Below are positions 1-21,700 of a DNA stretch of 64,000 bases, one piece after another (position 1 is the first letter of the stretch; each line of letters opens with the position of its first letter). Below the pieces are notes generated by a model. It made no database searches. It was not told where the DNA came from and saw nothing but the letters and a program-made list of their open reading frames with translations. This DNA comes from an uncultured Planctomycetales bacterium. Lineage in GTDB: Bacteria > Omnitrophota > Gorgyraeia > Gygaellales > Profunditerraquicolaceae. Position numbers and translations under genes: made by a program. The DNA lies in NCBI GenBank assembly GCA_964645795.1, contig CAZYCL010000002.1, forward strand, positions 272,352-336,351. Direction: 5' to 3'.

Positions 1-720
1 GAACTTTTCGGAAATCTTTCTTTGGTCAAGTACTCCTTCTGTTGAAATCTTAAGTTCGTGCGTTTTTACGCGTGTTAGTTTGGGTAGTTTTGTTTGCAGG
101 TCAAGAAGATTGTTTATAAGAAACGCCTGTTCAAAAGGGGTAATGTCCAATGCGGAATATATTAAATCATTTATTGATATCTTTGTGCTTTTGGGAAGCT
201 GAGTTTGAAGTAAAATACGCGCGACCAAATCATTGCATTCTTCTGTTCCTTGAACATTTTTTGCCATAAACTTACGTAGTATTGTATAGAATGCTTCCTT
301 CTGATCTTTGACTTTGGGATACTGTTTATAAAAATTATCCGATACAAACCATATCAGCCGGCGGCCTCTTTCCATTAATCCGGTATATCCGTAAATACCG
401 TCTTCTATTTTTATCAGCCCCATGTCATTTTGTTTCAGTTTTACGACCTGAATTGTTACGATGCCTTTTTGCTTCATATAATTCAGCAACGCGTTTGCGC
501 TCTCCTTGATGCTGCGTCCGGGATTTTGCAGTGTATCTTTTGCAAATGCTTCGAGGTCTTTTTCTTTCTCTGTTTTGGCAAGTACTTCTTGCGCCCCGGA
601 AAGAATGACGCTTCTTGCTGCGCTTGCTATTTTATCTATTATAGTTTTTGCCTTTCTGACATAACTATTCTCAAGCAATTGCCCCACTATCTCATCAACA
701 ATAGCAGCATCAAAGCTGGC
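1..720 (-). other. module of unknown function (C-terminal side; runs off window edge)
   Basis: Verified translation ...NDMGLIKIEDGIYGYTGLMERGRRLIWFVSDNFYKQYPKVKDQKEAFYTILRKFMAKNVQGTEECNDLVARILLQ...; no family recognised. Confidence 0.4.
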
Positions 721-3700
721 TGGCGAGCTGGAGGCGGGATTCGTAATCCGTAAATCGTAATCCGTAATCGGTAATCCTGGCGCCATACCGACTACGGCCT
801 GCGGCCTATGGCCTAAAAACACCGGCGAACATATTTCCTCTGATTCTTGAAGTTTATCCTTAAACCTACAAATAGATTGAGCCAACCGGTGTCCTAAATA
901 ACCAAAGCGCGATTCTTCTCCGCCAATCACTTCTTCAATAATCAAACGGCCCGCAAGATCCGAATAAGAATCTATCCCGTAGCCGCTCCTAAAATCTCCT
1001 TCCTGCCTTTGTAATTTAAAAGATAGCAGATAATCTCCGATATACTCATCAACGTAAAGACCGCCCACTTTAAGCCTCTCGAAGAACGCACGCTGCATAG
1101 GCCTGTTGGCGGTGAAGGCCTTGAAATAAATCAAATCTAATTCATCCGGGAGAAGACTTAAATAAAGAGTGGAACAGGCATCGGCCTGGATGTAGGTAAT
1201 TTTATGTTCTTGCCCGGATTCTCTACCGGAAAACTTAACCTCGTAAGACTGAAAAGGACGTAGTCTCAATGGCTTGACGGAAGAAACGAACATGCCCAAA
1301 CGCTCCAAATCAGCCATAAGAAACGGCTCCACCCCGATCTGATAACCTTCTTGCTCGTAATACAAAACACCCGCGCACTCCTGGCTGCTTCCCATCATGG
1401 GCAAAAATATTCTGTTCTGGAGTTCATCCTTGATAAAACTGCATTTGGCCTGCTCCAAATAATCCCGTTTCATGCGACTGAAGGCATCCTCTCCGACGAA
1501 GAAACCGGAATCACCGTCTTTATCGTAGATAAGATCCTCTTGGCGATAGGCAACTCTGAACGGACGTATATTTATATAGTAAACGGTCTGAAGGTTCGGG
1601 AAGATCTCAAAGATGCGCAAATCCAGTCCGCCCGGGTAAGCAGCGATGCGCGGCTGGCTAAGGATATCAGCCGGCGAGCTGGCCAGCCGAGATTTCAAGG
1701 CTGCCCGTAGCTGTCCCAGTTTTTTCTCAGAAACATCCAAGTAAGGATCATTTAAGATTACCTGTGCTTTCTTAACTGCGCAAAGATCACGTTTCTTTAT
1801 CCCTTTAATGATATCCAGAAAGTAGTCTTCGAAATATTCTTCGATGAGAAGGTGCTCAAAATTAGCAATAATAACCGGGCGGTCCTCATTAAATTCCGCT
1901 ATCCGAAAACTCATTGATCTCTGAGGAATAGCATGCAGAAAATCAATATCGGCATAAACATCTTTTTCAATATCAACCAGAAACCTATCCTTGATTTTCC
2001 GGCCATGCGATAAAGCAAAATGCAAGTGAACCAGCCTGCCGGCGTCATTTTCAGCATCCCTATATAAGGTAGCAATTATCTGTCCTCTTCTGACATTTTG
2101 ACCCCCATCTACAAGTGGAACAACATGCGCATAGGTTGAAAATAATCCGCTTAATCTTTTTCCGTGCTCAATTGATATAAAATAGTTAAACGGCCCATTA
2201 TACTTATAAACTTGAGCGATCACTCCATCTGCTATGGCCCTTACCTTTGTTTCTGCTGGGAGACCCAGCATGATGCTTCCTTCCTTATTAAAATAGGCCG
2301 CCCAGTCGAAAGACGAATCTCGCTCGCCAAATAGGAAATGGCCTGCTGGACCATTCCAACTTACCCATTGCTTGAATCCCGGTATGGATGTTTCATCTAC
2401 GGGAGTCAATACATCCAGATTAGAAGACCATTCCATAGTATCGTAAGATATTGGAACTTTAGCGCTAAATTTGCCTACTCTGTATTCCACCGGTGAGCTA
2501 ACAAGCTCTAATCTTAACGCAGGGCTTCTTTGGGTTTCAATCATGACATTAAGCTCTTTTGATACCAGAAAATTGCCCTTCGCGCTCCTTATCAATTCTA
2601 ATCCTTCGAATAGCTGCTTTAACTGGGACGATTGAACATCAGCGGCGCCATAGTGGTAAGTATAATGCTGTATGTACTCTTGAAAATGAGGCTTGATTGA
2701 AACCGTATCGACAGCAGTAACAGAGGATCCTTTCTCTATATGAACTCGACCGGCAAGATTAACCAAGTACCAAAGAAACATGATCTTTGGATATTGAAGG
2801 CAGAGCCGGTCATCGTCCAGTTTGCGGCTTTCATCGATAATATTGCCATCAGGATATATCTCAAGCATTTTATTTACGTAGTTGACGCATTCCTTATCGC
2901 CCCAAATAGATCCTTGCGCCATAGGCGAACTGGACTTGCAGACATCAAAATAAACGCTTAGAATCCGGTAAGCGCGGTAGAGCTCTTTGGCTTTCCTTTT
3001 CTCCCGTCCATATTCCGCTATTTTATTGATGCAGATCTCTTCCAGCTTTCCTGTTTTGCCGCGATAGAATGAATCTATATCGATGTCCAGAACGCTGATG
3101 CTTTCAGCGATTATTCGGGGTATCTCCCTGGGCAGATTCATCTCATGATCCTTTAGATAGCTATTGAATATGGAATAATACGCGGCCTTGAGTTTTCGTA
3201 TATCCTTTGCATCTTTACTCTTCGCTATTTTTTCCAGGCACATCTCCTGTATAGTCTTCCTGCTGCATATTTCCTGAAGCATTATATCGAGACCGAATTG
3301 CTTAAGATTATTCTGAAGATCTTCCTTATGCTTGAGTTCGGGGTGATCCGAATATATCTGCCGCAATTCATTCTTTTTTGCATTAATCATATTTATTATT
3401 GCCAAGGCGCCCAACAGGATTATGGATGAAAACCACATGAGCGGAACAGCAAAAGCAAGATAACGTAAAACCGGATAAGCAGCAAAGAAAGTCGTATCGG
3501 CAAAAAGCGATATCAAAAATAAAGGCCCCATAACCGGCATAAGTAAGAATTGATAGGCTTCGCTCTCGACAATTGCCGCTGGTTTTGAAGCAAGTATTTT
3601 TACCAACAGTTCTTTTTCTCTCTTATGCGATGCCAAGCTCGATTTTTTGGGATTCAGGCCTTTTGTCGCCGGAGAACTTGCGTTATCTTGCGACAGTAGG

Positions 3701-6700
3701 CTAGCGCGTTTTTTTAGCACTTTGTCTAGATACTCTCGCCCATTTTCGCTTAGAACAAACTGTTTTCCATTGTGGGCCTTGATAAAATCTGCGTTTTCTG
3801 CCCTATCAAACGATTCTTGCCAATGCCGTCTGGAATAATCAACTAGCTCTATCGATGCGCTGTGAAGCGGACGATCGGGCATAGTTCTTGCAACCTCGAA
3901 TAAAGCTTTCCTCAAAATCGACTCTACATTCTGAGGCCCATGAAGCCTAATCTGATTAAGCAGATAATTAATTTGAAATTTTTTCTCCGCATCATTCTTT
4001 AGCGAATATTTTTTGTATAATGGCGGCTCTATCCCGATAATAAAATCCCGCAAGCAGTTCAGCAATTGCCAATCGTCTTCGCAAACTAAATACGGGATCA
4101 TCCCCCAAAATCCTTCAAATACCGGGTTCCCCAAACAAACCGCTATCTTGTCTTCCTTCATGAAACTCTCTACTATCTGGCTTCGCTCCGATATACTGCT
4201 GGTCAACTTTATAGAAGACACCGGGAAATTCCACAAAACTTGCCTTTGCCAGCGCAGCCACTCCTGATTATCAAAAACCATTTTCTTAAATGCGTGGCGC
4301 ACTTCTTCATCTCTATTGCGCTTTAGTTTAAAAGCAGCTCCCTCTAAAGGCTTAAATACATGTATGAAATCAAAATCCGGCAAATCTCGGCGCAAATAAG
4401 TGAGCTCATCGATTTCTTTGCGCATAAACCGCATTAAAGACAAAAATCTGCGTGCAAGAGGGTCGTACATATTGCAGTAAAGCTGCCCTGCGGGAATTAC
4501 GGCGCTAATGAAAGAAACGGCGGCAAGTGAAAGGCCGATTTGGTTTGAAATATTTAATACATTGGACCTCTGTGAATCATCCCAACCAAGTGCTTCATAA
4601 AACGCATTCACCTTCTCAAGCACTTCGAATCCTGAACGACTAAGATTATCCTTACCTAAAATATTGAATATTTGCCGCAACTCATGCTCATCAATGCTTC
4701 TTCCGTCTAGCAGTAATCGCTCTAATCGATTAGCGTCTTTTTTAACTCTCCGTCTCAATGAATTTGCAGCTTTGTACCTCATCCCGGATAAGGGAGAAGA
4801 CCCTAAGAGTACTTTGCGACTTTGATCTTTAAAACTCGCTGGTTTCCTAAAAAATAGGTGTTTTATATCTTCGGTCTGCATGCTCAATTCCCTGATAATC
4901 TTCTTATACTTGGCCCCGTCTATTTGGTCATAAATATTCCTCATCAAAGAAATAATTTTGTTTTTGTCTTTGGAGGCGATTTCCCGCGGATAAGCGATAA
5001 AGAGTCCGGCGATAGTAGGAATGCCCGCTCGATAATTAGGAAGGAATGAAATGCTTTCGTGCCTGCGAGGAAATATATAGAGCCTGTCGGATGAGGAATA
5101 AAGATTGAAGGGTATCATTTTATTTTGCAGAGCTCTGATTAAAGCAAAGGCATGATTGATTCGTTGATTGGGATCGCTGCTTTCAACCACAAAAACTATT
5201 CCCGGGTAGCCTTCTAATTCGCCTACTCTAGTGCACCTATCCACAAAATAAGTTTTCAGCGTTAAGTTTTCAATGGGGAAGCTGCCCTTAAAGAGCTGAA
5301 AATGAAGACTTTCGGGCTTACTGGCCCCGGCACCTTTTTGGTTAAAATACCATTTACTTTGAGTGACTTCGCTTATCAGCGTCGCCAGCATCAAATCTTG
5401 GGCTGTAACCGGCCTATTCTCTTGAGTAAGTTTTAATATGAAATGGAAACTGAGATATGGACATTTATTCTTTAGTATCTGATAGGGCATATTATGGCAT
5501 TTATTAAGATCGTAGATCGGCTCTTCTTCAGGGATAGATTCGGATTGGATTAACCCCGTATTAACTGAATTTTTCTCCATAACTTTTTTTACAAGTAAAG
5601 GTTGCAATTGCACTTCGGCTGCGAAATTTTTGTTTACCTTGACGGTTTTCTTGATAACGCTTTTGCTGTCCCATGATATCAGCCCATTATTTTTAGCTTC
5701 CCTTAAGGCATTTAAGATTACCTGCTTTAGATTTGCTGATTCCAATTTTTTTCTTAGATCGGCCGTTCTCGAAGCTAAAACCGACATATCCGTTCCTTCC
5801 ACCGGCGAACTGGCGATTTTTCTCCTCCGGTACCCTGGCTTACCATAGAAAGCCCACAAGGCATCACGAGGATGCGCATATATATGATTATTGCCTATCT
5901 TGGATTCAATGCGCCCGTCGGTTCTTAAAACGCCGACATGACATAATGTTCCATTATCATTGTAGTAAACGACCAGATCTCCGGGCTTACTTTGAATCTC
6001 GGAGACCACTTCAAAATTACTGTCGATGATATCTGAGATCTCTTTATGGTTGCCTACAAGCTCGGGATAGTAGAATGCCCTCGCGTAGCTCAGGCACTGG
6101 CCGGCAAAAAACTCTTTGCGCATGACAATGGAAAAGCCCGGCCTAGAACCAAGGGCATCTGCATGCTCAATGTTCTTTTGCGAATTAACCGTTGCTGTTT
6201 TCTCATCCGCCGGAGAACTGGAAAGCCCTTTCACAAAACCGATGTCTTGCGCTAAGTGATTGCGGGTGCCAAGCAATATTACCGAATGTTCCGGATATCC
6301 AAGAAACTCCGTTAACACCTCTGCCTTTGGCTTGTTTTCGCTCTTTCTGATCACTGAATTAAGCACTACGGCTATGCCTTTTTGATTTAATGCCGCAGCT
6401 AAATCGCGTTGTTTCTGGAATAGCCATCCGGGCATCTGCACCGCATCAAGGCCGTCAAGTAACCCCTGATTAACCGCGGCTTTCAGCACGTCTTCCCGAG
6501 AGATGGAAGCCCCGATATATTTGACTCCGTATAAGTTACCTTCTTTGATGCGGGCCATAGTATTTATAACCCGGACATCGCGCAATACTTCTTCGGTCGC
6601 CCCATGGATATAAAGCAACTCAAAATTACCGAGGCGCTGAAAGCTTCTTTCTGCCGACCGCATGAGGTTTTGGCAGGTATGGTCTATTTGCGATTTGCCC

Positions 6701-9700
6701 TTATCTACAATGAACTCCTCCCCCCATTTTGTGGCAATGAAAGCCCTTTGTCTTAAATGCGGATATTTGAAAAAGAATTCTCCGATCCGCTTTTCGCTAA
6801 AACCGTAAGCCGCGGCTGTATCCAGCATTATGACCCCGTCTTTGTTAGCCATCCGGCCAAAGACGATGTTCAAATAATCTTCTATCTCTTCGGGTTCAGG
6901 ATAAAAGTAATCCTTATTATCCGCAGGCCACCTGCGGCCGAACCAAATTGTCCCGGCGCCTAAAACGAAAAATTCCAATCCTGTTTTTCCAAAATTCCGG
7001 TAAAGCGATGCCGCCGGAGAGCTGGCAGAGTCATCGGCTGTCGGTAAAGAACCGTTGTTGTATGAATTAATTTTCGCCAGGTCAATACCAATGGGAATAT
7101 TTTTTGGCAAAACGGGGACTTGACTTCTTTTGTCGTTATTAACGATCAAATCCCAGCGGATGTTTGCCTCTCTCATCTGTTGATGTATGGCAATCCACCT
7201 GGAAGCATATTCTGCATGGATCTTTCTAAGAACTTCGGGACTGATGCCTTCTCCATACGGGATTCCATGCTCCGCGAGAAATCTGTCATGAAATGCCGAT
7301 TCTGCGCTATAATCAGAACGTTCAACAAGAACATGAATATCCAATGTAATATCGTGTTCGACGAGCCAGCCCAGCGTGTGGACCCCTTCCACAACGATCA
7401 CCCTAGCGTTCTCTTTAGGCACGTAAGGGGCCAGGGCATTCGGGTCTTCTTCAAGATAGGAATTGATCTTATCCTCGGAAAGACCCAGGACATCGCTCCT
7501 GACAAGCAATTTCGAGAATGTAGTTTTGCCTACCGCCGGATAACCACAAATGCCCACCGCGACCGGGATCTTGCCTTCTTTAAGCTTTTCTTCAATCATT
7601 GTTTTTAATATTCTCAAGCCTTCCACTAATGAAAACGCCTTGAGGGGCCTGTTTTCCGGCGTCACCGGCGAGCTGGACATTATTTTATCGGCGACAACCG
7701 TCCAAAGCGGGTTACCCGAGTGCCTGCCCAATACATCGATCTTGCAGATTTTAAACCCATGCCTTTGGAAATATTTCCCGATCTCTGTTTCTGTATAAAA
7801 TAATTTGCTACGGTCATAATCAAGCTTGATATGCAAATTCAGTGAATCGATAATGTACTGCCTTATTCCTAAAGTTGCGGCCCTGCTGAATTTATTAAAC
7901 AGGTACATTGCCTCCGGGGAATCAACCGGCAGCGAATCAATATTGATTTTTTTCGAGCTTAGGTGGCATCGGAAAAAAGGCAGCAACTTACGATAAGTAT
8001 CTATGCTTATAAGCCAGTTATTCTGCGGGTGTATCATGATATTCACCACCCTGCCAAATGGCCGAAGAATACGGTTCAACTCTTTCCCGGATTTTTCCAA
8101 ATCCGTATAGCACCAGCTGTTTACCGAAAAAGACCCGTTAAAGTAGTCTGAGGGGTAGGGCGTATTCTCTATTAAGGACTTTACATGGATTATCTCTAAC
8201 CCGGCCCCCGCCGGAAGGCTGTCATTGGCTTCCAGGGTATGCATCTCTACCTCAAAGGGAAGGCTATTCTTTAGGCGATAGGCGTAATCGGAATCGCCGC
8301 AGCCTAACTCTACTAACCTAATCTTATATTTACCTTCCATGCTTGGGCTTTCCTGCATGCTGCTGGCGATAAAATGTATTATTTTATTTACCCCGGAATC
8401 GGCATAGCTTTCCCCGGAAGGCTGCTTTTTTTGCTGCTTCCCCCATGCGGACACCTTATCCATTTGCGCATCCACCGGCGAGCTGACCGGGCTGCTTACC
8501 CCTGCTTTTTTATCGCTGCCAAAAAGGGCCACGAATTCTCCGGAAGAAGAATAATAAGAGAGCTTTTTATCGCTTTTTCTCCATATGCCGAAAGAATCTT
8601 CGAATGATTTGATGATATCCGGGTATCTAGCCAGTTCTTTAAGCTGAGGGCCATTTCTTTTTATCGCCTTCTGGACGTCTCTGATATATCTTTGCGCATC
8701 CCCGGCATCAATTTCCAGATATTCGGCTATTTGCTGATAAGTTAAAGCATGGAAGCGTAAGATAAATGCAGCCTTCTTGATATTTCTAAGCCTCTTAACT
8801 TCAGCAAGCCTGTCCCATATCCTTTTACGTATGTAATGATGCTCAAAATCAAGCACAATAGCCCAGAGGCTCTCAATATAATCCCGAGTTTTATTCTCTA
8901 ATAAACGGTTAACCCAATAAAAGCAGTTATTGGAAGACTTTTCCGACGTCCCAAGATATTTCCCGATTTCCTTGTGTGCGATATATCTGAATTCATGAAG
9001 TATGAATATTGCCTTGCCCTTTTCCGATAGCCAGGGGATAGTATTTAACGCATCTCTTACCGCAGATAATTTAGGGTATTTATCCAATGGGGCAGAGAAT
9101 TGAGCTGAATCTCTACCCGCATATTTGATTAATCTTCTGGCACGAAATAACCTAGTTTTAATTGTCGCTACCGGCAGTCTTAACCGCGCTGCAAGCTCTT
9201 TATAAGAGAGGCCCTCAAAATACCTAAGGGTAATTACGCTCTTGTGCATACCTTTTAGATGATCTATCTGTTGACGTAAAATCAAAATTTTATCTATCTC
9301 GTCACCGGGTTCCTCACTGATCTCTTCCTGAATCTCGTCTATATCTTTGTATCTATTTATATATACCTTATTTCTATCGACCCAATTCTTTCTTAACCGG
9401 TCAATTCCCGTATAATAGGCTATCTTATAGAGCCAGGTCTGAAAATTCGCGGCCTGCGGGTTAAATCTATTTCCTTTTTCCCGCGTTAAGGCTATCTTAT
9501 TAAAGACATCCCCAGCCATTTCTTGGATTTCCTGATCAATAAATACCCCGTTAAACCGAATGTGATAATAATTTATAAGCCTGTTCCTGTAGCGGCTGAT
9601 TATTTCATCCATGCCTGCAACTCTTCCTTGATAAAACTTCTCCATGGAAATGGCGTCGATCGACGGGGAAACCGGAGAGCTGGTATTCCTTGTAGCCATA

Positions 9701-12700
9701 TCGCAGCCGACAGGAGAAACGGAAGAAGCTGCTGCTTCCCCCAGATTAACCCTGCCCGGGGCAAGAATACGCCCCAGTTGACTAGCGATATCGGTCAAAC
9801 TTTTGCTAAAAAGAGGAGATTCTTTCTCGAAAGTGGCCCAAAATCCGGAATCTGTCTGCCTTACGGATTGGATGACCCTGCGTAAAATCAGCGCCCCTTC
9901 GGGCAAAGAAGCAAAGCTTCTCAATAAAGTAAATATGAGCTGGTTGCGCCGCAGACAGCCTTCCAGCTCTAAAACATCATCCCAGCCGCTGACGGCTCCG
10001 CTATCCTTCATTTTTTCAAGTAACGATACGGCCGACAGGCAGCGATACGATAAAGGATTAAATAACTGGGCTTCCTTTACAAAGCGGCATAAGTCGCAGG
10101 ATGAATCCTGCTTCAGATGAAAATGGTCTGCCTGATGGATAATCGCGCTTATATCCTTTAGCAAAGAATAATCACCGATAAGATGCAGGCTGTTCATTAA
10201 AAGCATTGTCTCCAGCAGAGCGTCACCTTTGCCGTTAGAGTAAAACATGCGTCTGGCAAGCTGATCAGCTATAGGCTCCCTTTCTGCGTCCCATTTGTTT
10301 GCGGGTTCTTCGGATATATTCAGGCCGTCAAAACTCTTGTCTGCCCTGTCCAACAGGTCAAATGCAAACAACGTGTTTAATAGCTCCCTGCCTCTTAGGA
10401 CGCCATTGTTACCCGGACCGATATAGAACCGTAGCGCCTGAGAAGCCGCTTTTTCGGAGTCTTCTTCATTCACGACAACAGCCGGAACTCCGCCCTGATC
10501 CATATAAACCGCTACTGTTTTCGATGCCCCTTCGCCAAGATGATAAACCAGCTCTTCGATTCCTGTATTAAGAGTTATTCCGTTTTTCTCTGAAACGCGT
10601 ATGCCTTTTATCACCAGGTCCGGACCAAACTCATCCAAAAGCCAAGTCAAAGACGGCAATGATCCTTGGCAGTCAAAAACTAAGGCACCCTTCTTGTATA
10701 CGCGTATGCGCGGGTCCTGGATGACAACCGCTTCCTTGAGCGGTTCTTTGTGGTTTATGTGACGATCCCGGTTAACAGCGGCGCCAGGCTTGATTACTCT
10801 GTCATTGGCAACCCCCTTGTACTGCAGTGCCCAAGCATACTGAAGATCGGGATTTCTTGCCTTTGCGGTGCCGGTCAATCTGCGAGCCCGTACAACTCTA
10901 TTGCCCGTCTTATCATGCCTATTATTGCCTTTCTGGCCTGACTTATTATTTTTCTTGATTTCTGCCCTGATGCGGAGCTTATCTTCCCTGACGCGGAGCT
11001 TCTCTTCTTTAAGCTTTTCCCGCATCTCGTCTTTCGCCTTTCTCTTAAGCCTGGAGGCTGCCTGCGTATAATGCTTTTCAAACCTCCTTAAAACCGCTTG
11101 TTTTTGGATATAGCGAGCTATGCTTTCAACCCTGTAATTTATAAGCTGCTTGGTGGGAATAAGGTATTTTTTAATGCCCGCAGCTTTCAGTATTACGCTT
11201 ACCTCCTTTGCCTTTCTGAGCAAGTTTACCGGATCGGCGTAATGCTTGCCTTCTTGACGGTACTGCTTCGGAAAGGAATTGTAGTCGACGCCGAACTCGA
11301 TCAACCCTTCTATGGCCTGACGAACCTGCAATGCCTTCTTCTCTTCCTGGCGGAGTCTCTGCTGTTTCTTTTTCTTTAAATATTTTATTGCTGCGGCTAC
11401 GGTATGCCTCCTTAGCAAGGTAATGGTAATCTCATTCTTATCCAGATCATACCCCTCTATCCGTTTTTCAAGCTCGTCTCTTTTGCTGCATAAAGCCCAG
11501 GCGGATATATGGTCCTTGAAACAGGATGATACTTTGTCGAAATCTATGGCGTAAACATCCAAAAGCCTCTTTTTTGCGGCCTGCTGCCGGCATAAATCTT
11601 CTTCGATCCTTGCGATAGCCGCTGTGATCATTTTTACATGTGCATGCGCAGAGTACTTTAAAAGCGTATTCGTTGAAACCTTGTAATCACCAAGGCCTTC
11701 CTTCTCCAGCTCCGCCTGTAATCGCACTCTCTTCTCCAGCAGCCCTAGGGGGCTGATATAATACTTGCCGCCTATGCGCCGGTAAAATCCCGGTATAGCG
11801 TAATAATCAATACCGAATTCTTTGAGCGCCCGCACGACAGCGCTGTTATCATTGCCCACCGGTGAACTGATGAAGCAGCCGGGCCTGTGATAAACTTCCA
11901 CTCCGGCAGGCAGGTTCCCATTGATCACTCTCTCTAATTTGCGGAAGGTTAAAGAGACCTGCTGTTCCGGGGCGTTGGTAATGATGACCTGGGCATCGTC
12001 TTTCATCTCAGCCAGGAGCTTATCTTCCAATCTGTATTCCGAAAACGACCCGCTTTTCGTGTATAAAATAAAGTCTGTCTTGCGCAGGCTCACATTTTCG
12101 CCTAAGAAGTCCAGACAAAATATTTCGATCCTGCCGACCAAATTCTCCCAGCCTGCTTCTTGCCTAAGCCGCCGGATGATGGAGTGATTGTCTTCGACCA
12201 GGTCTATGTCACCCTCTAAGCCTACTGCGCGCTTTGCCCCAAAAGCTGCGACCATCGCCAACTCCAGACCTTGACCGCTACCGAGGCTAAATACAGTCTT
12301 TCCGCTGATATCAATAGCGTTAAAAACCCTAAGGAATTGTTCAAAAGCGGTGGCCTTAAAATGTCCGTAGGAGGTGATCTTCCCGGAGCCGCTGGTTAAG
12401 GTCAATTCTTCCGTGCCTAAATAATTATTGGCATAACCGCTATCGCCATAATATTTTCTCAAAGTTGACAATAAGGTCGCCCTTTGGCTGACATATGGAA
12501 AACCCACCGGCGAGCTGGAAAGCCTGGATTGCAATCTGGAAATCCCGCATGCCGCGCCGGCCACTGAACAGGTAAAACCGGCAACGGAAAGAACTATCAA
12601 CAACAGGCCTTTCCGGGCAAAATCACCTGCCCTTGCATCCATTAATGTGCCGTCGGGATTGAACCTATACAGGGCCAGCTCATTCTCCTTTATAACGTTG

Positions 12701-15700
12701 ACGTATCTATCCTCTGTGATACCCACATAAATATAGTTTTCATAAAATGGGTATTCAAACACCAGCTTGAATTCTTCTTCAAGTATAGGCACAAGGATAG
12801 CCCTAAGGAGAGCGTCTTTGGTATAGAATGCGTTGACAACCAAACCGGCTGGCTCCAAACCCTTGGATCTCAGGATTTCCGCCATATTCTTGACCAGCGT
12901 TGATAATTGATCCGCACGCATCCTGCCGCTATCCGCAGTATTAGGGCTGATATGGGCAAGGATCACCGAATTAACCGCCGCATTATTCATGCCTTTCATG
13001 ACCAAGGCAATACATCTATCAAACATGATGCGGTCGGTCTTTATCGCTGTGAGTTCCGGCACTATAAACATCCGGTCTTCTTCCACGAGCCCGCCAATAC
13101 CCCAAGGCCTCTTGTTCTCATCCAAAAGATCGTAACCTTGAGCAAAAACCGGATTAGATAACAATAGTGCATACAGTAATATTACCAGCCGCAAGGCCGC
13201 TTTAAGACCCGGTACCGGAGAACTGGCGCCGGAGTCGACCAGGAATATTTCGGGATTCCTTTCGATGGGGCCTAAAAGCTCATGATAAAGGAGCTCTTGC
13301 TGTTCTATGGGGAATAATTCGAAGAAGTAAGGATTTATTCGGAGAGTCCTGGCATTGATATCGCCTAAGGCGATACCTCCTTTAGTGGAGTGTAAATCGG
13401 TGGTAATAACAAGCGACCTATCGGATATCTGGGGAGGGGCGTGGCCGAAGAATGCCTTAAGCTCTTCCAGCCGTTTGCTTAAGATGCCCTGGTGCTCCTT
13501 GTAAATAAAGCCTTCCGGTCCGGTTATTAAAATAAGGTCGCTGACCGCAGCTTGGGCCAGGAGCCGGTTAATACCATACTTTTCTTCCATATTTTTCTGC
13601 TCTTCAAGCGGTACATAGAGCGGGTGTTCGTTGGCTTTATTAAGACTATTCTTACGCCTGCAGAATAACTCATAGTTGACGTGATTATAACGCACCAGGT
13701 CCCTGATCCCGTTAGGCAGCGGATCGCCAGGCCCGCCTATCAGATAAGATAAGATATTATAGACATCGTCTCTTCCAAAATGAAGGTAGTAATCCACGTT
13801 TTCAAGGTCTTGGACGGACGATTTGTTGCCGAGGACCAGCCGCACAATGGCGGCAATAGGATCATTCTCGTTAACGCTGCCTTCCTCTTCTACAAAACGG
13901 ACAAAAGATAACAGGTCCTCCCATTTTAAGTCCTTGAACGCCTCTGCCGTGCGCAGGTTAAACCAGGATATGTGCCGCATAAGGGCTTCGCTGGAATACT
14001 TATCTGTGTTATTTGCCTGAAGGGAATTAAGATAAAAATCAGTTATCGCCTTCTGGAGCCGGTCAAATGCTTGCTGTTCGGCAAGCTTGAAGAACTCGCA
14101 GTAGAGCTCACTGGCATCGCTTACCGGCAAACACAGCATCTTAACCGCATCAACACCTTGTTGCGATGACTGCAGGACTTGCTTGCCTTTAGCAATGAAA
14201 TCCTTACGCACGTGCTCAAATGCATATACCACCATCCGCGGCTCCAACGGCAAAATAACCTTTAAGCAGTTAGCGCAAGGGCGAAGCGTGACATAAAAAA
14301 TCCCGCCCTTAAAGGGATTGCCGGATAAAGATAGTATCCTTTTAAACAAGGCCACTCCTTCAAAAGAATCAAACAGCTTATCTTTCTGGATTATACGCTC
14401 TAACTGCAGCAGGCCCTCTTTGTATTCGAGGCTATCTTCCGGCCTGACATTTGAGGCGAGCTTATTCAGGATATCAAATACCAGCCTGATCTCTGCGTGG
14501 GAGTGCGTGCCAACGGTGTTGACTTGCGAGCCTGCGTATCGCCCTTCTGAATCATAGAACGAAGCGGCAACGGTTGCCGGCGGGAATGACGTTATTTTAG
14601 ACTTAGCCCAAAGGACCAATGAACGCAGTATCATTATCTGATGTTTATATCCGGGCTGGCCGGTATTCCTGCGGCCCTTAACCGGCGAGCTGAATTTGCG
14701 CATTACTTTTACTGTTGTCGGATGGTGGAACCTGTATCCCCAGTCGATGTCGTCATCGTCGTAAGGGCTCGGGCAGTATTCAAATCTGTAAGAATACGAA
14801 TAATTTCCCGTTATATGGCGATAATCATATGGCCTTAGCGCTTTAGCAAATGCATTCCTATAACCTAACGGCAACCATTCATTATCTACCGTATAACCTT
14901 TTGCCTTTAAAATGGGCGTCATATATTTAGAGTCCAGATTATTTAATAATAAATATTGTCCGGGATCGATGGTATTTTCAAGCGTATCGATATATTCGGA
15001 TAACAGCTTGATATGCTTCTTTTCTACCATTTTTCCGTGCAGATAAGAAAAGGCATATTCAATTAAACCTTTGCATAACACAGTTGCTCTTCCTGTCTTT
15101 ATAAAATCATTTATCAGTCCGGCTAGCGCTTCTTTATCATTGATCTCGGAGTTTGTATACAGGAGAGGTTCTTTCCCGATAGGCTGCCCTACTTCCCTTT
15201 CCATGAAACCAAACATGGCCTTTCCGCCCTCATTGTCCCTATTGAGGTAGGCTGCCGGGGCATACAAGGAAACAAAACCGTCCACTCCCGCCGCCGGATA
15301 GATCACTGTCTGGCGCTCAAATACCCTGCCGAGCCACAAAAGCCTGTATACTGCCCCGGTAAAAGGAATGATCCTTCCAGGATTGCCATCGCGGCTGTCT
15401 CCCAAACGCATTATGCTCATAACTGATTCCAAATCATCGCTTGGAAAAGATTTGCTTTTTTGAATCGGTGAACCGGCTTCGGCGACAAACCTTGTTTTAG
15501 CTTCGCTAACCGCGCGCCTTGGATTAATTACCCTGAAATCATAGCCTGCAAGGATATCAGCGGTCTCCTGTATGATCTTAATCGCCTCATCTTTGGTCAG
15601 GGCGGGATTTACGGCGAACATCTCAAGCAACACGCCCGCCACCTGCGGAGCGGCAAAGCATGTCGCCTGTCTGTAACGCTTCTCTCTCTTGTGCATACCC

Positions 15701-18700
15701 GCACCGGAATACGCAACGGCGGCTATGTCAACGTATGAACCGTAGTTGCTGCAGCCTGTTTTTGTGTATCGACCCGAATCATACTTCACGCTGGCCACGG
15801 ACAAAACAAAATCATAGGCTGCCGGATATACGGGATATCCGTTGTTGCCGTTTCCCGCCGGAGCAACCAAAATCAGCGTATGCGGATATCGGCTGAACAG
15901 CTGCGAAAGGGATTTTTCAAACGAGTAAAAATCGAGGTAAGAACCGAAGTTCATGTTTACGATGAGCTTCTTGCCGCAAGCGAGCTTTTCTTCTATTTCT
16001 TGGAGGGCATCGGAATACTTGATATAACTGATGCGGCGCCCCTTTTTGTTATCCTCTACGTCAATCACGTTTACGCCGGTTTGACCGGTCCAAAGGTACA
16101 ATACACTTAAGGCGATGTCGCTGTGTTTAAGGCCGGCCCTTACGCCAGAGCGGTGATTGCTATCCAAAAGATACGCCTCCCAGCCGCTCCCTGTATCACT
16201 GCCCCGCTCTTGGGGGAATGCTTTTTGAATAGCAAGAAACACCGCTGCGGCAAAGAAGAAACAGAATACCCTGCTTTTAACAATCGGAGAGCTTATGCCG
16301 TGAATGATCACTAAGGCTCCTACCGGGCTGGAGCCGGCATCTTTGAAAAATCCTCCTGAGGGCGATAAACCCCAAGCTGTAAACAACCTCTCTCTTCCCG
16401 GACAACCGTCCTTGCCGCCGCAATCCAGCAAACAGGCCAAACATTTAATCGGAGATTTGGCTATAGTGTCGAGCCCCTCTACATCTGCGTATCTTCTTAA
16501 GCCATTAGCCCGGTCGGGCTTGACACATTTGATGAACCTGCCGTCCGGCAGAAGATAAAGCTTATCTTGATCCTGAGAGACAAACCTGGATTGCTTTATG
16601 AGCCCGCAATCGACAACTAACTGGTCGAAAAGCTGCTGCGCCCTTCCGCATAAATCCAGGATGCGCTTATCGACATGAACGTCGCCTCTCCTGCTAAACT
16701 TGTTGATCAGGCTCACCAAGGCCGCAGGGTCGTCTTTACGCCTGAAGGAGAAAGGCAGCAAAAGTACGTCTACGTAGCGGTAACCTTTGACTAAAGTAAT
16801 TATATCTTCGATGATATCGCGGTAACCACCCAAACCGACCTTGCGCATCCATGCGCTGGGGGCGATGCTGATATTCAGCGTATCCAGTACTCTTATCTGC
16901 AGTAATTTTAATAGAGCGCGCATACCTACGGAATCAGAGGCGAATCCCGAAGTATATAATGTATAGGCGTAGGACTCATTGCCCTTTATCTGCATTATCA
17001 TATCCGCGCAGTCCCTATCGTAAACAAAATCGTAATAATCCCTGAGTATGTCGCTTTTAAGTATATCTATGCCGTATGCGTAAACGCTCAAAACCCAGAC
17101 CCATGGTATAGAATTTATGTTTATAATCGTTGCGGCATCGCAATGGTCGCACTGAGTAGAGCAGCCCCAAACAGGGACTAAAGTGTAATCGTTGACCTTG
17201 GAACTCAAAAAGGTATCTTGCCTTGCCCCTTCCAGCAAAGATACGAAGTATTCTGCCTTTGGATATAGCAGCGCATTCAGGCTGTTTCTGTTTATTAACT
17301 GCCTGCAGCCGGCCACAAACTTAACCCCTGCTTCGGTAAGTGGCGCCTGGTAATGCTCTATCATATTTATTTTTGCGTAAATGGCCCTCTCAAGGAATCC
17401 CCTGAAATCCAAGAACCCGTCCGGACCGCTGATATTGACCACCTTAAGCCCGTGATTGATTGCCGCCAGGTCCCTTATAAATCCCTGGTAATCAAAAAAC
17501 TTCCTGGACCAATCTACTTCTAAAGATGAATAATCCCCTCCCTTCCATCTAATGATTGCTTCCTGCGCCAGGTCTTCGATTAACGGCGAACTGGCGTCTT
17601 CGGATAAAAACAGGCTAAGCGTAAAAGAAAAGAGGTCTTCTTTATCCTGCTGGACGGAGAACGGCAACTCTTCTTCGTCATAAAACAACGGCCTATACTG
17701 GTAAACGATAGCCCTCTCACCGAGACTGCCAAGGTAAAAACCCGCATCAAGAATCTGGGAAAAATCTTCAGCATCAAGCGAGTATACAAAAGCAGTAAAC
17801 TCCCTGAACATGATCTTTGAGCCATCCGGGTAGCTTTCTTTTATGAAGCCGACGGGCGCTGGCTCGCCATGCCCCTGATCGCCATAATAGTAACCGCAGA
17901 TGTAGAACTTGCCTTCTCCGAAGTTTCCGGTCAATTTGTCGAGGAAATCATTCAAATCCTTATCCATATTGGCCACGGGCGAAATAAACAGCTTTATCTC
18001 GCAGGCGCGAAGCAAACCCTCTTCATCCTCCGTAAAACTCACCTCTTTTAATATCCTGTCCACGCGAAAGCGCAATTCTACCGGCGAACTGGCGTCCTTT
18101 GAGACTACCGGCGTGAATCTTGGTTCGCATAAAGGAAGCGTTATTGGCAGGCCGAGCTTGAGGAAATGGCTGTTAAGGAACCTTTTGATATCCGGGTGGT
18201 CCTGTATGGCCTTGATTAACCATACGATTTCAGCTTCCGGGTCAAGCCTCTTGGTATAGGGATAACCCTCTAAGTCTTGAGCAAAAGCCTCATACTCCTC
18301 TTCCGTAACGTAACAAATCTCTGTTCTGCCTTCAAGGTAGAGCGAAAGGCCGTAGATATTCGCGAATATCTCGCTGAACCCCGCTTTCCTTATCGAAGAG
18401 AAGCTTATCAGGATCATATTGAGCTTATCCTCATCCGCATCCAGAAAGACCTTAATTTGTTCAAAGGTCAGGGAAGAATTGAATATGCCGTTCAGGGATA
18501 GCTGGGCATCAAGGAAACCATCGACACTGCGGGTATCTATGTAATTATATTTATACCAGACGTCCTTTATGGGATTATTGTAATCACAGCAGTAATAGAT
18601 AAGGATATCGAAAAACCGAGAAAAAAGCTCTTCATCGCCGCTGTTTAATATCATGGTGAACAGCGAATCTGTCTCTTGGGCAAAAAGATCCCCTTTCTCA

Positions 18701-21700
18701 TGCATCTGGAAATGCTTCGCCTCTAAGGCGTGCACGGCCTCATGCGCAAGGAAGAATGCGCAGTAAGAACTTTCGAAAGAGTATATCGTCTCATCGTCAG
18801 GATCATAGAACGCCGCCAGGATCCCGGTCTTCTTCTCCTCACATAGCTTAACCCAGTCCTTGGCGCCGGAAATCGCCTTGACCTTGATCCCGTTTTGTCT
18901 TAAGACGTCAAGCAAGAGCTGCATAAGCCCGGGCTCAATCTCGATACAGTTTAGCCGGACCTCTTCCTGCGCGAAAGAAATCTGGGCGCTTGCCCCGGAA
19001 GCCGATATGCCGAACATGAATACGGGAAGCAATATAGGTATGAAATTACGGATGAAACTCTTCGGTAAGCTTGCCGGAGAGCTCGATTGCCTGGTATTTA
19101 CGAAACTGTATAAACGCAAGATCCCCGGCGCCTTCATTATGCGCGACTCCACATCATCGCTAAACTCCGGCAAGTTACCGCGCAATAAATGCTGGCTCGC
19201 CAGGTAATCCTGGTAGAGGCTAATAACATTCAACTCTTCTTGCAAGAAATCAATCCGATCAAAATCAATACTGTTGTATAGTTTTTTGCTTAACTCCAAT
19301 ATCCTGGATTGATCCAACCGGCCCTCTTTCTTTTTCCGGAAATAATCCCCGGCCATAACAAAGAAGGCGCCCGTGGCTTCCACCAGCCTCTGCTTCTTAA
19401 GAAATACATCGTAAGGCCCTGTCACAACAGTCCGTTCATGCTCGGGATCAAACTGGTCATAAGAACCGTCAATGCCAAAAAGCCTTTCGCCAGCTTGACT
19501 GCATATAGCCAGCCAGTAATGAATTGAGGCAAGATCATGATCGCGAAGATAATGCAGGCCGAGTATGACCTGACAATAATGACTTTTTGAGGGAATATAC
19601 GAGAGGCCGAACTCATCAAACAAAATGAGCGCCAGCAGCTTGGAGGTTATCTTGCAGTATTTAGTCTTTAGTTCGGGGGCAAGGAGTCTTGCCTCTTCAA
19701 GGGCATTGAAGAAAACCGCAGCGAAATCCTTTGAAGCTATAAAACCGAGCGCCTTTTCAAGACGCGCTACTGAAGCCGGCGAGCTGGATTCAAGGCTCAG
19801 GCGATAATACTTCTGCGCCTCATCAATCCTGCCCGCTGCATTATGGCAGATGCAAAGATTCTTATAAACCTCTCTGCCAAGGTCCGGCCTTAATACTGCT
19901 GCCTTCTCCAAGACCTCTATCGCCTCTTCCGTGCGCTCCAAACATATCAAAGCGCTTCCTAAGTTAAGATGCGCTACGGGGTTTTCTTTATCTATGCCGA
20001 TGATCCTCTCAAAAACAGCCTTTGCTTCCCGGGCAAACCCCTCCCTCACTAGCATTACTCCTATGTTATTCAACACGGGCAAGGAGAACCCGCCGGGAGC
20101 ATCCTGCAGCCGCATATCTTTATAATAAAGGTTCAAGCACGCCTTGGCTGCGGCCTTTCCCCATCCCAACTCTGAAATCAACATAAGCACAAGCTCTGGA
20201 AGCCTGCTTAGCTTGCCCTGTTTAAGAGAAATATAGCTTGGCCCTAAGTGAAAATACTCCCTAATATCCACGCTTAATACCTTACGTAATGACAAGTCTA
20301 CGATATGCAGATAATTACCTGCCTTGATAACCGGGAACACATGGTCTTTAAGGGAAGCTGCCTTGGGATAAAAGCCTAAGAGGGAAAGGATGATATAGGA
20401 GTGCAGGGCGGTTGCGGCGTTATCTTGCTGCCAATCCGCTGCCCTCTCCCTGTCAAAGAGGTCGGAATCACGCAGGATCTCGGAGATCATGCCTGCGGCC
20501 AGGCCTTCTGTCAGGACTGTCCGGATGTTTTCCCGGTATAACAGTCTTCCCTTACGTCTGACCACGCATCCTGGATCGACTATTTTTCGGTTTAACAACT
20601 TTTTAAAGAAAGCGTTGAGCGCTCTGGGACCTGCTTTTGAACGGGCCTCCTGTGCCTGCTTGGAAAGCTTATTCCAATCTACTTTTTCGAATGTTTTAAT
20701 GATCTCTTCGGATAGCTGCACAAGCCTCGACTCGGGGAACCCCAGGCTCATAAGCACTTGCCGTAAATCTAACCTATTAAGCGGTGAGCTTATCGCATCC
20801 GCGCTCTTAACGAAGCTATCGGCCTTATAAATCCTGAAAATATCCGAGAGGTGGTCGCCGGTAAAGTAATTCAGCTCTACCATCTCAGAGCGCCATCCAT
20901 AGGGCAAGTTATTTTGCAGCTTATCCTGCGTCCATAAGCTGGCCGCCTGCGTTATGCCGGCAAGGACAAACGCGCTTGAGTTGTCTTTGGCTACTTCGGG
21001 CAGGCCGGAGAGGATCTTTTTATTGACCCTGAAACCATCTCCCGAGTAGCTGATACAGGCAGATGGAGAAACCTGCTTGCCAGATATGATGGGATTATTG
21101 GCAACCAGCGCATCGAATCTTATGCCCAGGTCCTCTATCGCGTCATAAACATCGCTCTTTAATACCAACCAGCGTCCGGGATAATCAAACCTCTCAAGAT
21201 TGTAAACCGAAGTCTTTACCGCTTCATCGCAGTTATCCAGGCCTATAACGTACCTGGCGCCTGCCTTAAGCAGGGCCATCGTCAATACCCCGCTGCCGCT
21301 GCCGACATCCAGGACTGTCTTATCCATAAAATAACCTGCCCAGCTCTTATGATGCAGTATCAGCCAGAGGAACTTACGGGTAGTAGAGTTAATAGGTATG
21401 CAGACATCCTCCCTTATCCTGACCCACTCTCCCAGCTCCTGCACATAAATACTGCGGTACGGGTTAAGCGGCGAGCTTGAGCGCAGGAGCTGCGAAGAGA
21501 AGTTGACGATGATCTCCCTTGTATCTTCGTCAACATAGTTAGGGATTATTGCCGAAACATCCCTGTTCCACGGACGGTAAACATCGACCGCAAACTCCCA
21601 GGGCCCTTTATTTTCTTTTGCGGGAAGCACGGTTTCTCCGCTCTTGACTGCCAGATCCTGGGCGTCCTGGTCCATGCGGGTGCACTCCGATATGGCAAAG

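Follow-up and report, generated by a model that had tools for sequence, protein, structure and literature searches.

Giant open reading frames (ORFs) of 10,000-147,000 codons are common in the Omnitrophota, and whether their products work as one molecule or as cut pieces is explicitly an open question. An 'Archaeovorin' type has been described (West-Roberts et al. 2023, bioRxiv 10.1101/2023.11.21.568195), as has a 'multi-enzyme metabolic' class (Nielsen & Lui 2026, bioRxiv 10.64898/2026.06.07.730766). Both papers meet with an implausible extracellular placement of cytoplasmic enzymes, and the former states that cleavage points are unknown. Here we analyze a window of 64,000 nucleotides from an uncultured Planctomycetales bacterium (GTDB lineage Bacteria; Omnitrophota; Gorgyraeia; Gygaellales; Profunditerraquicolaceae), comprising positions 272,352 to 336,351 of contig CAZYCL010000002.1 in GenBank assembly GCA_964645795.1. 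The window is read from end to end by a single giant frame, in which a complete extracytoplasmic function (ECF) sigma factor is enclosed on both sides by the tetrapeptide S-S-P-[V/L/A/I], a motif that recurs along the chain at module junctions. We propose, with a probability of about 0.5, that this multi-enzyme giant is built as a polyprotein from which the sigma factor would be released by cleavage at the junctions.

The window resembles the published giants in its very long single ORF, here tens of thousands of codons, and in its GT5 and GT1 glycosyltransferases, methyltransferases, glycoside hydrolase, peptidases including S8, HAD, radical-SAM-like, receiver, TPR/HEAT and sugar-phosphate modules. 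In a search of 5.8 billion database proteins, the closest multi-module relatives were long proteins labelled Candidatus Omnitrophota. It differs in lacking SecA_DEAD, with no SecA family match in the 21,333 amino acids (aa) of the window, and in having only 6 transmembrane (TM)-like segments over that length, where numerous TM helices are typical of the Archaeovorin and multi-enzyme class; SecA and further helices could lie beyond the window. Neither paper mentions a sigma-factor domain, an inter-module motif or a polyprotein. The searchable literature yielded no mention of the sigma unit or the junction motif, and no work that reads Omnitrophota giants, or other bacterial giants, as polyproteins. 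The giant ORF belongs to a known Omnitrophota class, and the sigma unit and junction motif appear to be new to that literature.

Viral polyproteins, such as those cut by picornavirus 3C or potyvirus NIa, hold complete proteins in one chain with a short motif at each junction, and the motif co-varies with the protease. The giant ORF likewise contains several complete autonomous units with a defined short motif at their junctions, but it is cellular and two orders of magnitude larger, and S-S-P-aliphatic is unlike the viral sites. In Bacillus subtilis, pro-sigmaE and pro-sigmaK are inactive group 3 sigma precursors activated by endoproteolysis of a 20-30 aa N-terminal pro-peptide; here the sigma factor is of the ECF type and has thousands of flanking residues on both sides. 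ECF41 and ECF42 factors carry a C-terminal domain (SnoaL-like or TPR) fused to the sigma2-sigma4 core and have no adjacent anti-sigma gene. Our sigma module also has a C-terminal extension and no adjacent anti-sigma, but the extension consists of two sigma4-like repeats. The MARTX toxins of Vibrio (PMC6315884) are perhaps the nearest bacterial parallel, with arrayed autonomous modules that are released by inter-module processing and a repertoire reshuffled by recombination. They are much smaller, however, at 3,500-5,200 aa with 3-5 effectors, carry a dedicated cysteine protease domain in cis that is activated by inositol hexakisphosphate, and act in the eukaryotic cytosol. The giant ORF has at least 60 modules of housekeeping type and another motif, and neither a convincing candidate protease nor a delivery apparatus is seen in the window.

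The initial annotation of this DNA had placed a sigma factor in the middle of an ORF of more than 21,000 aa, and this was borne out. Direct translation of the whole window finds no stop codon in the 21,333 codons of the minus strand at offset 1, compared with 772-1,594 stops in each of the remaining five frames, and every Pfam match along the 21,333 aa lies in that same minus-strand frame. The length is a lower bound (at least 21,333 codons), as the frame runs past both window ends. For this reason it was absent from a program-made ORF list, which omits such frames. The chain comprises some 60 protein-sized units in the window, arranged head-to-tail. Carbohydrate modules include mannitol dehydrogenase, aldose 1-epimerase, starch-synthase GT5, GT1, PFK, Rpe+RpiB, GH77 and aldo-keto reductase (AKR). 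Other enzymes are LOG, several SAM methyltransferases, a HAD hydrolase, a PrmA-like methyltransferase, a radical-SAM-like protein and an HD_4 module, which is a RelA/SpoT-type HD domain. Regulators are represented by a receiver, MraZ and the ECF sigma, and peptidases by two copies of M23 and a subtilase (S8)-like module. These are mostly families normally found as separate cytoplasmic or exported proteins, and the two kinds are interspersed along the chain.

The sigma core is that of an intact ECF factor. The NCBIfam model TIGR02937 (sigma70-ECF) covers aa 18130-18291 at 80 bits, against a cutoff of 42.9, and the match spans positions 4-162 of its 165. A custom profile, derived from 61 ECF sigmas that are free-standing, scores 133.6 bits over aa 18115-18293 (profile positions 9-182 of 195). 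Pfam adds Sigma70_r4_2 (77 bits, cutoff 25.7), Sigma70_r4 (48 bits) and Sigma70_ECF (22.8 bits, cutoff 21.1). Regions 2.2 and 4 had been described as intact on the strength of two peptides, which lie in the giant frame at 9444-9403 (FQTWLYKIAYYTGI) and 9228-9181 (LRYFEGLSYKELAARL). The description holds. Alignment with AlgU, SigW and RpoE extends over the full length, regions 2.2/2.3 and 4.2 are conserved, and the diagnostic stretches FxTWLYxIA...R of region 2 and LRxFEGLSYxEIA...TVKxRLFRAR of region 4 are kept; neither region 2 nor the helix-turn-helix is degenerate.

An AlphaFold (AF2) model, made from a shallow alignment, agrees with this assignment. Its predicted local distance difference test score (pLDDT) is 72-86 for sigma2 and 63-86 for sigma4, falling below 50 at the SSP of the upstream junction. 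All top Foldseek matches in the PDB are ECF sigmas, SigW, AlgU and RpoE being the best, and the sigma4 model superposes on RpoE region 4 bound to -35 DNA (2h27) at 1.2 A with 41-42% identity. The core has the ECF arrangement: a short linker connects sigma2 to sigma4, and region 1.1 and sigma3 are absent. ECF factors are ordinarily free-standing proteins of ~170-250 aa, usually beside an anti-sigma gene, and the best 150 database relatives of the sigma part are all free-standing, at 150-300 aa and no more than 74 bits. Here the factor is instead enclosed in the chain. No anti-sigma family is found in the adjoining modules; the downstream neighbour is a methyltransferase, and Pfam finds nothing significant in the 729-aa module upstream. 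The C-terminal extension alone matches Pfam Sigma70_r4_2 in 2 stretches with 35 bits (cutoff 25.7) and gives weak sigma4 matches with the custom ECF profile. The coordinates of these and other features are collected in Table 1.

Table 1. Features of the giant frame, in window positions; aa numbers are those of the frame.
Feature	Position	Strand	Residues, basis or remark
Giant ORF, internal piece	1..64000	(-)	21,333 codons; both window ends open
Whole sigma unit	8473-9681	(-)	aa 18106-18508; 395 aa between junctions, exceeding a plain ECF sigma in size
Upstream junction SSPV	9670..9681	(-)	aa 18106-18109; directly ahead of sigma module; flank ...TSSPVSPS...
ECF sigma core	9112-9666	(-)	
Sigma domain 2 (regions 2.1-2.4), incl. 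FQTWLYKIAYYTGIDRLRK	9382..9666	(-)	TIGR02937; AlgU/SigW/RpoE alignment; AF2; Foldseek
Sigma2-sigma4 linker, ~30 aa	9289..9381	(-)	disordered, acidic, no sigma3; AF2 pLDDT 32-37, module residues 101-131
Sigma domain 4, helix-turn-helix for -35 element, incl. LRYFEGLSYKELAARLRLPVATIKTRLFRARRLI	9112..9288	(-)	Sigma70_r4_2, Sigma70_r4, 2h27 superposition
C-terminal extension, 205 aa, same module	8497..9111	(-)	two sigma4-like helix-turn-helix repeats, aa ~18319-18370 and 18400-18448
Downstream tandem junction SSPV-SSPV	8473..8496	(-)	aa 18501-18508; closes sigma module; flank ...VSSPVSSPVD...
Subtilase (S8)-like module	14692..16293	(-)	signal-peptide-like hydrophobic segment 3 aa past its junction
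Radical-SAM-like module (CX3CX2C, WGCSTQCDHC)	16321..17592	(-)	SSPL aa 15469 to SSPV aa 15889; junction motifs at 17581-17592 and 16321-16332
SSPV ahead of M23 peptidase	25639-25650 and downstream	(-)	aa 12783; twin-arginine-like signal peptide
Rpe+RpiB module	35356-37314	(-)	aa 8895-9548
CheY-like receiver module	38692..39831	(-)	SSPL aa 8056 to SSPV aa 8432
Modules of low GC at third codon positions	~47500-53700	(-)	aa ~3425-5490

The motif that closes off the sigma module is strongly over-represented. S-S-P-[VLAI] occurs 63 times in the giant frame against ~2.6 expected, and SSP with any fourth residue 67 times against 4.3. Broken down by fourth residue, the observed and composition-expected counts are 31 and 0.24 for SSPV, 15 and 0.44 for SSPL, 10 and 0.31 for SSPA, and 7 and 0.33 for SSPI. 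In 200 shuffles the top count for any four-residue word was 9. The 63 copies belong to the coding frame, each of the other five frames having 0-6. Flanking residues are unconserved, save for a small or aliphatic residue at -1. Both serine positions swap between the AGY and TCN codon families, with ~20% of first-Ser codons being TCN and ~10% of second-Ser codons AGC, and position 4 is filled by GTN, CTN, TTR, ATH and GCN, which form an aliphatic class rather than a nucleotide class. These codon patterns indicate that the constraint on the motif acts at the peptide level.

The motif is also placed where junctions between proteins would be. None of the 63 sites falls inside a Pfam domain, compared with 11.4 expected from domains that cover 18% of the ORF (P = 3e-6). 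Of the 26 domains, eight have a match that begins at profile position 1-8 and no more than 24 aa past a site (P = 3e-4): MraZ at +8, the receiver at +12, DUF3856 at +12, HAD at +13, GH77 at +17, PFK at +22, AKR at +22, and the sigma factor at +24 by TIGR02937 or +9 by the custom profile, counted from the start of the upstream SSPV. Other domains end shortly ahead of a site, by 4 residues for RpiB, 7 for aldose epimerase, 2 for a TPR array and 18 for M23. Successive sites are separated by a median of 254 aa (mean 310 aa), a spacing that matches ordinary proteins in length. Segments resembling signal peptides or Tat signals begin 3-5 aa past junctions in the M23, S8-like and other modules, as in SSPV-SRRIFLIKSTLASLSLLVP ahead of an M23 peptidase, SSPI-VKSRVFCFFFAAAVFLAI ahead of the S8-like domain and the further example SSPV-PGLKAALRLVILLYALLLSNPVFAQG.

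Comparison with free-standing orthologues points the same way. The radical-SAM-like module is 36-40% identical to its counterpart in P0157-P0159. It is a stop-bounded, free-standing gene at two loci, L007 (543 aa) and L009 (551 aa), and six more free-standing database proteins (P0161-P0166) bring the range to 530-563 aa. The free-standing forms end 9-11 residues past a conserved ...GLSxxGGF, and in seven giants the junction motif stands 2-21 residues past the equivalent GGF: SSPV in the window and L004, SSPL in L006 and L010, SSPI in L013, ASPL in P0157 and SSPM in L003. At the other end, a motif directly precedes the first homologous residue in three giants: the window, L006 and L008. The modules that follow the radical-SAM-like unit vary between giants. 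Because free-standing orthologues end where giants carry junctions, the alignments indicate that the motif marks the termini of independent genes, with units shuffled between giants and joints retained.

The free-standing radical-SAM-like proteins (P0161-P0166, L007 and L009) themselves have N-terminal signal peptides followed by a conserved x-L-S-P-[A/I] some 35 residues in, a junction-like motif in proteins of ordinary size. Secretion of a protein with a radical-SAM-type cysteine motif is odd in itself.

SSP[VLAI] or a variant (ASPL, ASSP[AV]) is enriched ~15- to 30-fold in giants of at least five other Omnitrophota lineages. As a cross-genome probe we used the radical-SAM-like module common to the window, P0157, P0158 and P0159; searched against GTDB genomes, it found 14 loci, 10 of which are labelled Omnitrophota or Omnitrophica. 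Motif sites number 45 in L006 (1.35 expected), 20 in L010 (1.0 expected), 19 in L013 (1.05 expected) and 15 in L003 (0.8 expected). The 6,528-aa protein P0159, from an ENA metagenome, has 20 sites against 1.0 expected. In P0157 (2,869 aa, from an NCBI metagenome-assembled genome, MAG) ASPL occurs 6 times against 0.06 expected, and the next ORF on the contig adds four more. The motif flavour differs by genome: ASSP[AV] is found in both L010 and L013, which belong to the same MAG (GWA2_41_15 Hainich-Omni-XXI), and ASPL in two adjacent large ORFs of L002. Such genome-specific flavours are as expected from a reader acting in trans. Giants of the same build are present in independent assemblies. 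In L010, HATPase_c ends at 2628, a junction follows at 2630 and HAD starts at 2662. Junctions in the other giants tend to come in clusters, several copies lying 10-60 aa from one another between protein-sized intervals. A general quirk of these proteomes was considered and ruled out, as 42 ordinary genes of the same loci (13,694 aa) stand at chance level with 3 sites against 2.4 expected; three further negative controls, P0158, P0007 and P0008, have none.

Three side observations concern these relatives. L006 2-13024 packs its motifs into 4,341 aa, many 10-60 aa apart, and has no Pfam family at E <= 1e-4; it consists almost wholly of unannotated short units or spacers, and so offered no domain boundaries for comparison with its junctions. 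On the unrelated contigs of L001 (19616-20957) and L002 (14268-17271), the giant's stop is followed in the same order by a HEAT-repeat region or protein, a small ORF and PilZ-domain genes. L005, L011, L016 and P0158 hold the shared module yet have no enriched tetrapeptide, and offer natural negative controls in a hunt for the motif's reader.

The sigma module itself stands apart in composition. Its GC and third-position GC (GC3) are 0.404 and 0.42, whereas the upstream neighbour has 0.477 and 0.517 and the downstream neighbour 0.452 and 0.552. The best two-changepoint fit to GC3 puts one break at aa 18121, 15 codons from the upstream sigma junction, and the other at aa 18488, 13 codons from the downstream one. 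Along the ORF as a whole, GC3 shifts more at junctions than at randomly chosen positions (0.083 vs 0.064, p = 0.0013). A word-indexed search with the sigma module returned only free-standing ECFs of ~226 aa with 26-32% identity, and the module found no matches when used as a query against genome contigs and metagenome contigs. The two long hits of a HMMER search, P0007 and P0008, are not giants with an orthologous sigma factor; they are ordinary multi-methyltransferase proteins that match the downstream module and lack the junction motif. As its composition differs from that of its neighbours and no other sampled giant has it, the sigma module reads as a lineage-specific cassette, probably gained by acquisition. 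A further run of modules (Table 1) has a GC3 of 0.34-0.46, compared with about 0.52-0.64 elsewhere in the ORF. This run, the low GC of the sigma module and the last ~2,000 aa jointly suggest a compositional mosaic of cassettes of different origins.

A CheY-like receiver had also been reported elsewhere in the ORF, and this identification needs qualification. The domain is present at aa 8068-8169 (Pfam Response_reg, 41.9 bits, cutoff 30.2, profile positions 2-104 of 111), and it keeps D12/D13, a serine equivalent to T87, and K109. In pairwise alignment, however, the phospho-acceptor D57 of CheY is replaced by Asn (LVTNVRLA vs VISDWNMP), and on this alignment it is best called a pseudo-receiver. 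The ~260 aa that follow have no Pfam family match. Receiver domains in Omnitrophota giants have already been noted (Nielsen & Lui 2026, bioRxiv 10.64898/2026.06.07.730766).

We propose a model that builds on the open frame, the intact sigma factor, the modular design, the frame-specific motif, its recurrence in other giants and its coincidence with orthologue termini. Units would be joined by short linkers that carry [S/A]-S-P-[V/L/A/I], often in tandem. Polyprotein cleavage sites have just this look, a brief exposed peptide signal set precisely between autonomous units. An endopeptidase would recognize the tetrapeptide in these exposed linkers and cut the chain co- or post-translationally; given the motif flavours, the factor that reads it would act in trans and be genome-specific. 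Units that the cut leaves with an N-terminal signal peptide, such as M23 and the S8-like module, would be exported, and cytoplasmic units such as the sugar-phosphate enzymes, the methyltransferases and the sigma factor would stay inside. The freed sigma factor, of ~45 kDa, could bind core RNA polymerase, and the released module may work as a sigma factor. Proline at P2 with an aliphatic P1 resembles the classical substrates of subtilisin and elastase; cleavage after the proline may equally be the case. Whether the motif is a cleavage site at all we put at roughly even odds from the sequence patterns. If cleavage occurs, it would resolve the paradox of cytoplasmic enzymes predicted to be extracellular, which arises in both giant-gene papers.

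The initial annotation had reached proteolytic release from the premise that sigma factors and receivers function as free soluble proteins. The premise is too strong for receivers, which are usually fused to other domains. Release nonetheless remains a reasonable proposal, to which the junction motif lends independent support, though cleavage is inferred only and no convincing protease was found.

A number of observations weigh against the polyprotein model. No cleavage product has been observed, and with a case drawn from sequence throughout we consider cleavage an evenly balanced proposition. Pfam finds no competent processing protease in the window, including its TPR-crowded N-terminal part; the N-terminal part of the ORF lies beyond. 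The S8-like module is the only candidate in the window and is atypical. Its Peptidase_S8 match (33.7 bits) is partial, covering profile positions 108-273 of 288, and in alignment with thermitase GTSMATPHVAG faces ATCFAAPQVAG, so that the nucleophile Ser is a Cys. The oxyanion Asn is kept, but recognizable Asp32 and His64 motifs are missing from that alignment, which weakens the module as an obvious processing protease. Both M23 domains belong to the peptidoglycan type of peptidase. The motif is not found at every domain boundary, since Rpe and RpiB share one module with no junction between them and the first 1,847 aa (mannitol dehydrogenase, a weak HAD and a P-loop) hold only one ASPI site. 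Nor is it universal among giants, since the related L005, L011, L016 and P0158 show no motif enrichment. An exhaustive HMMER search of 1.84 billion representative proteins with the 1,200 aa around sigma, and a scan of ~55,000 aa of other giant frames with the custom ECF profile, found no other giant with a sigma module, so that conservation lends no support to its function. Within the module, Pfam Sigma70_r2 taken alone reaches 17 bits, under its cutoff of 24, and the AlphaFold model of the C-terminal extension is helical but of such low confidence that it is too poor to interpret. Finally, codon usage at the motif shows a bias that would not be expected of a protease site alone. TCG encodes the second Ser in 31/66, 15/20 and 9/12 cases in three genomes, compared with a background of 10-14%, and across genomes Pro is preferentially encoded by CCG and the first Ser by AGY. 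A translational pause may underlie the bias, as may common ancestry of the joints or gene conversion between them as cassettes were shuffled.

A translational pause is one form of the alternative that the chain stays uncut, the tetrapeptide serving to time co-translational folding, or as a site of modification (Ser phosphorylation or glycosylation) or docking, with the sigma factor tethered or an idle passenger. A tethered sigma factor could hold RNA polymerase or DNA at a membrane-anchored scaffold, and published work does treat the giants as membrane-anchored multi-domain proteins. The TCG preference in three genomes suits a pause signal better than a protease site, the lack of a competent protease is easily accommodated, and the degenerate look of the receiver and S8-like modules is compatible with some modules being relics. 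Yet a pause needs rare codons rather than a fixed peptide, and CCG, at 38% of the Pro codons in the window, is not rare; Ser is retained through codon-family switches, and position 4 keeps a physico-chemical class. Signal peptides 3 aa past junctions, the mixed compartments of the enzymes and the few TM-like segments are hard to reconcile with a single intact molecule. A sigma factor must also dock both of its domains into core RNA polymerase, which appears sterically unlikely with ~18,000 residues on one side and at least 2,800 on the other. We consider an uncut chain unlikely, if worth keeping in view. A second alternative is that the tetrapeptide has no protein role and is the translated footprint of a DNA-level joint, such as a recombination core or scar for in-frame insertion of cassettes. 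A preferred DNA form does exist, AGY-TCG-CCG-GTN, and the string AGYTCKCCGG is present in 24 in-phase copies, with one more copy out of phase and one on the opposite strand. Modules move between giants and the joints are kept, GC3 shifts more at junctions than elsewhere, and the sigma module forms a block of low GC with changepoints 13-15 codons from its junctions; 'integrative-element passenger genes' are moreover among the hypotheses of the 2026 preprint (bioRxiv 10.64898/2026.06.07.730766). However, TCN codons for the first Ser and AGC codons for the second need multiple substitutions and the residue is still Ser; position 4 varies at its first and second bases, yet encodes only V, L, A or I; the ASPL and ASSPA flavours differ in DNA while keeping the peptide pattern; and a neutral scar would decay at non-synonymous sites too. 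The Ser codon switches and the aliphatic fourth position thus count against a purely DNA-level motif as the sole explanation, which we regard as decidedly improbable. It may instead describe the origin of the joints, and would then be compatible with their later use as cleavage sites.

It is tempting to speculate that the sigma module is an effector which, after release, is delivered into host cells or bacterial prey and redirects the RNA polymerase found there. Phage-encoded sigma factors redirect host RNA polymerase in this manner. The literature links Omnitrophota giants to predation or episymbiosis, and the cassette is compositionally foreign and unique among sampled giants. The module has no signal peptide or other visible translocation feature, though, its neighbours are ordinary metabolic enzymes and the window contains no delivery apparatus; the idea is pure inference and, in our estimate, very improbable. 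An origin of the giant frame in faulty assembly or annotation is effectively refuted, as is the making of its modules from internal translation starts. An unbroken frame that holds every Pfam match, with giants of like build in independent assemblies, speaks against an artefact. Internal initiation is unsupported because neither Met (1.4-1.6% after junctions vs 1.7% overall) nor a Shine-Dalgarno sequence with ATG within 30 codons (6/63 junctions vs 5.6% of random positions) is enriched past the junctions, and no Shine-Dalgarno-like sequence lies ahead of the first Met of the sigma module (MEKFYQ).

Beyond this locus, the junction motif provides the first concrete candidate sites at which such giants could be cut into working proteins. 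It also allows giants to be split rationally into units for structure prediction and annotation, and the contrast between motif-positive and motif-negative giants gives a handle for finding the protease. The complete sigma factor makes the strongest functional case that at least some units have to be freed from the chain before they can work, and its release, if true, would wire transcription control to the synthesis of the giant protein itself. More broadly, we suggest tentatively, and at somewhat less than even odds, that some Omnitrophota giants are true cellular polyproteins of dozens to hundreds of proteins, among them metabolic enzymes, exported hydrolases that bring their own signal peptides, and regulators, cut by a genome-specific endopeptidase and with cassettes added or swapped at junctions. 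If so, a sizeable part of the proteome would be co-expressed without an operon, and a transcription factor would be produced at a fixed ratio to the other units.

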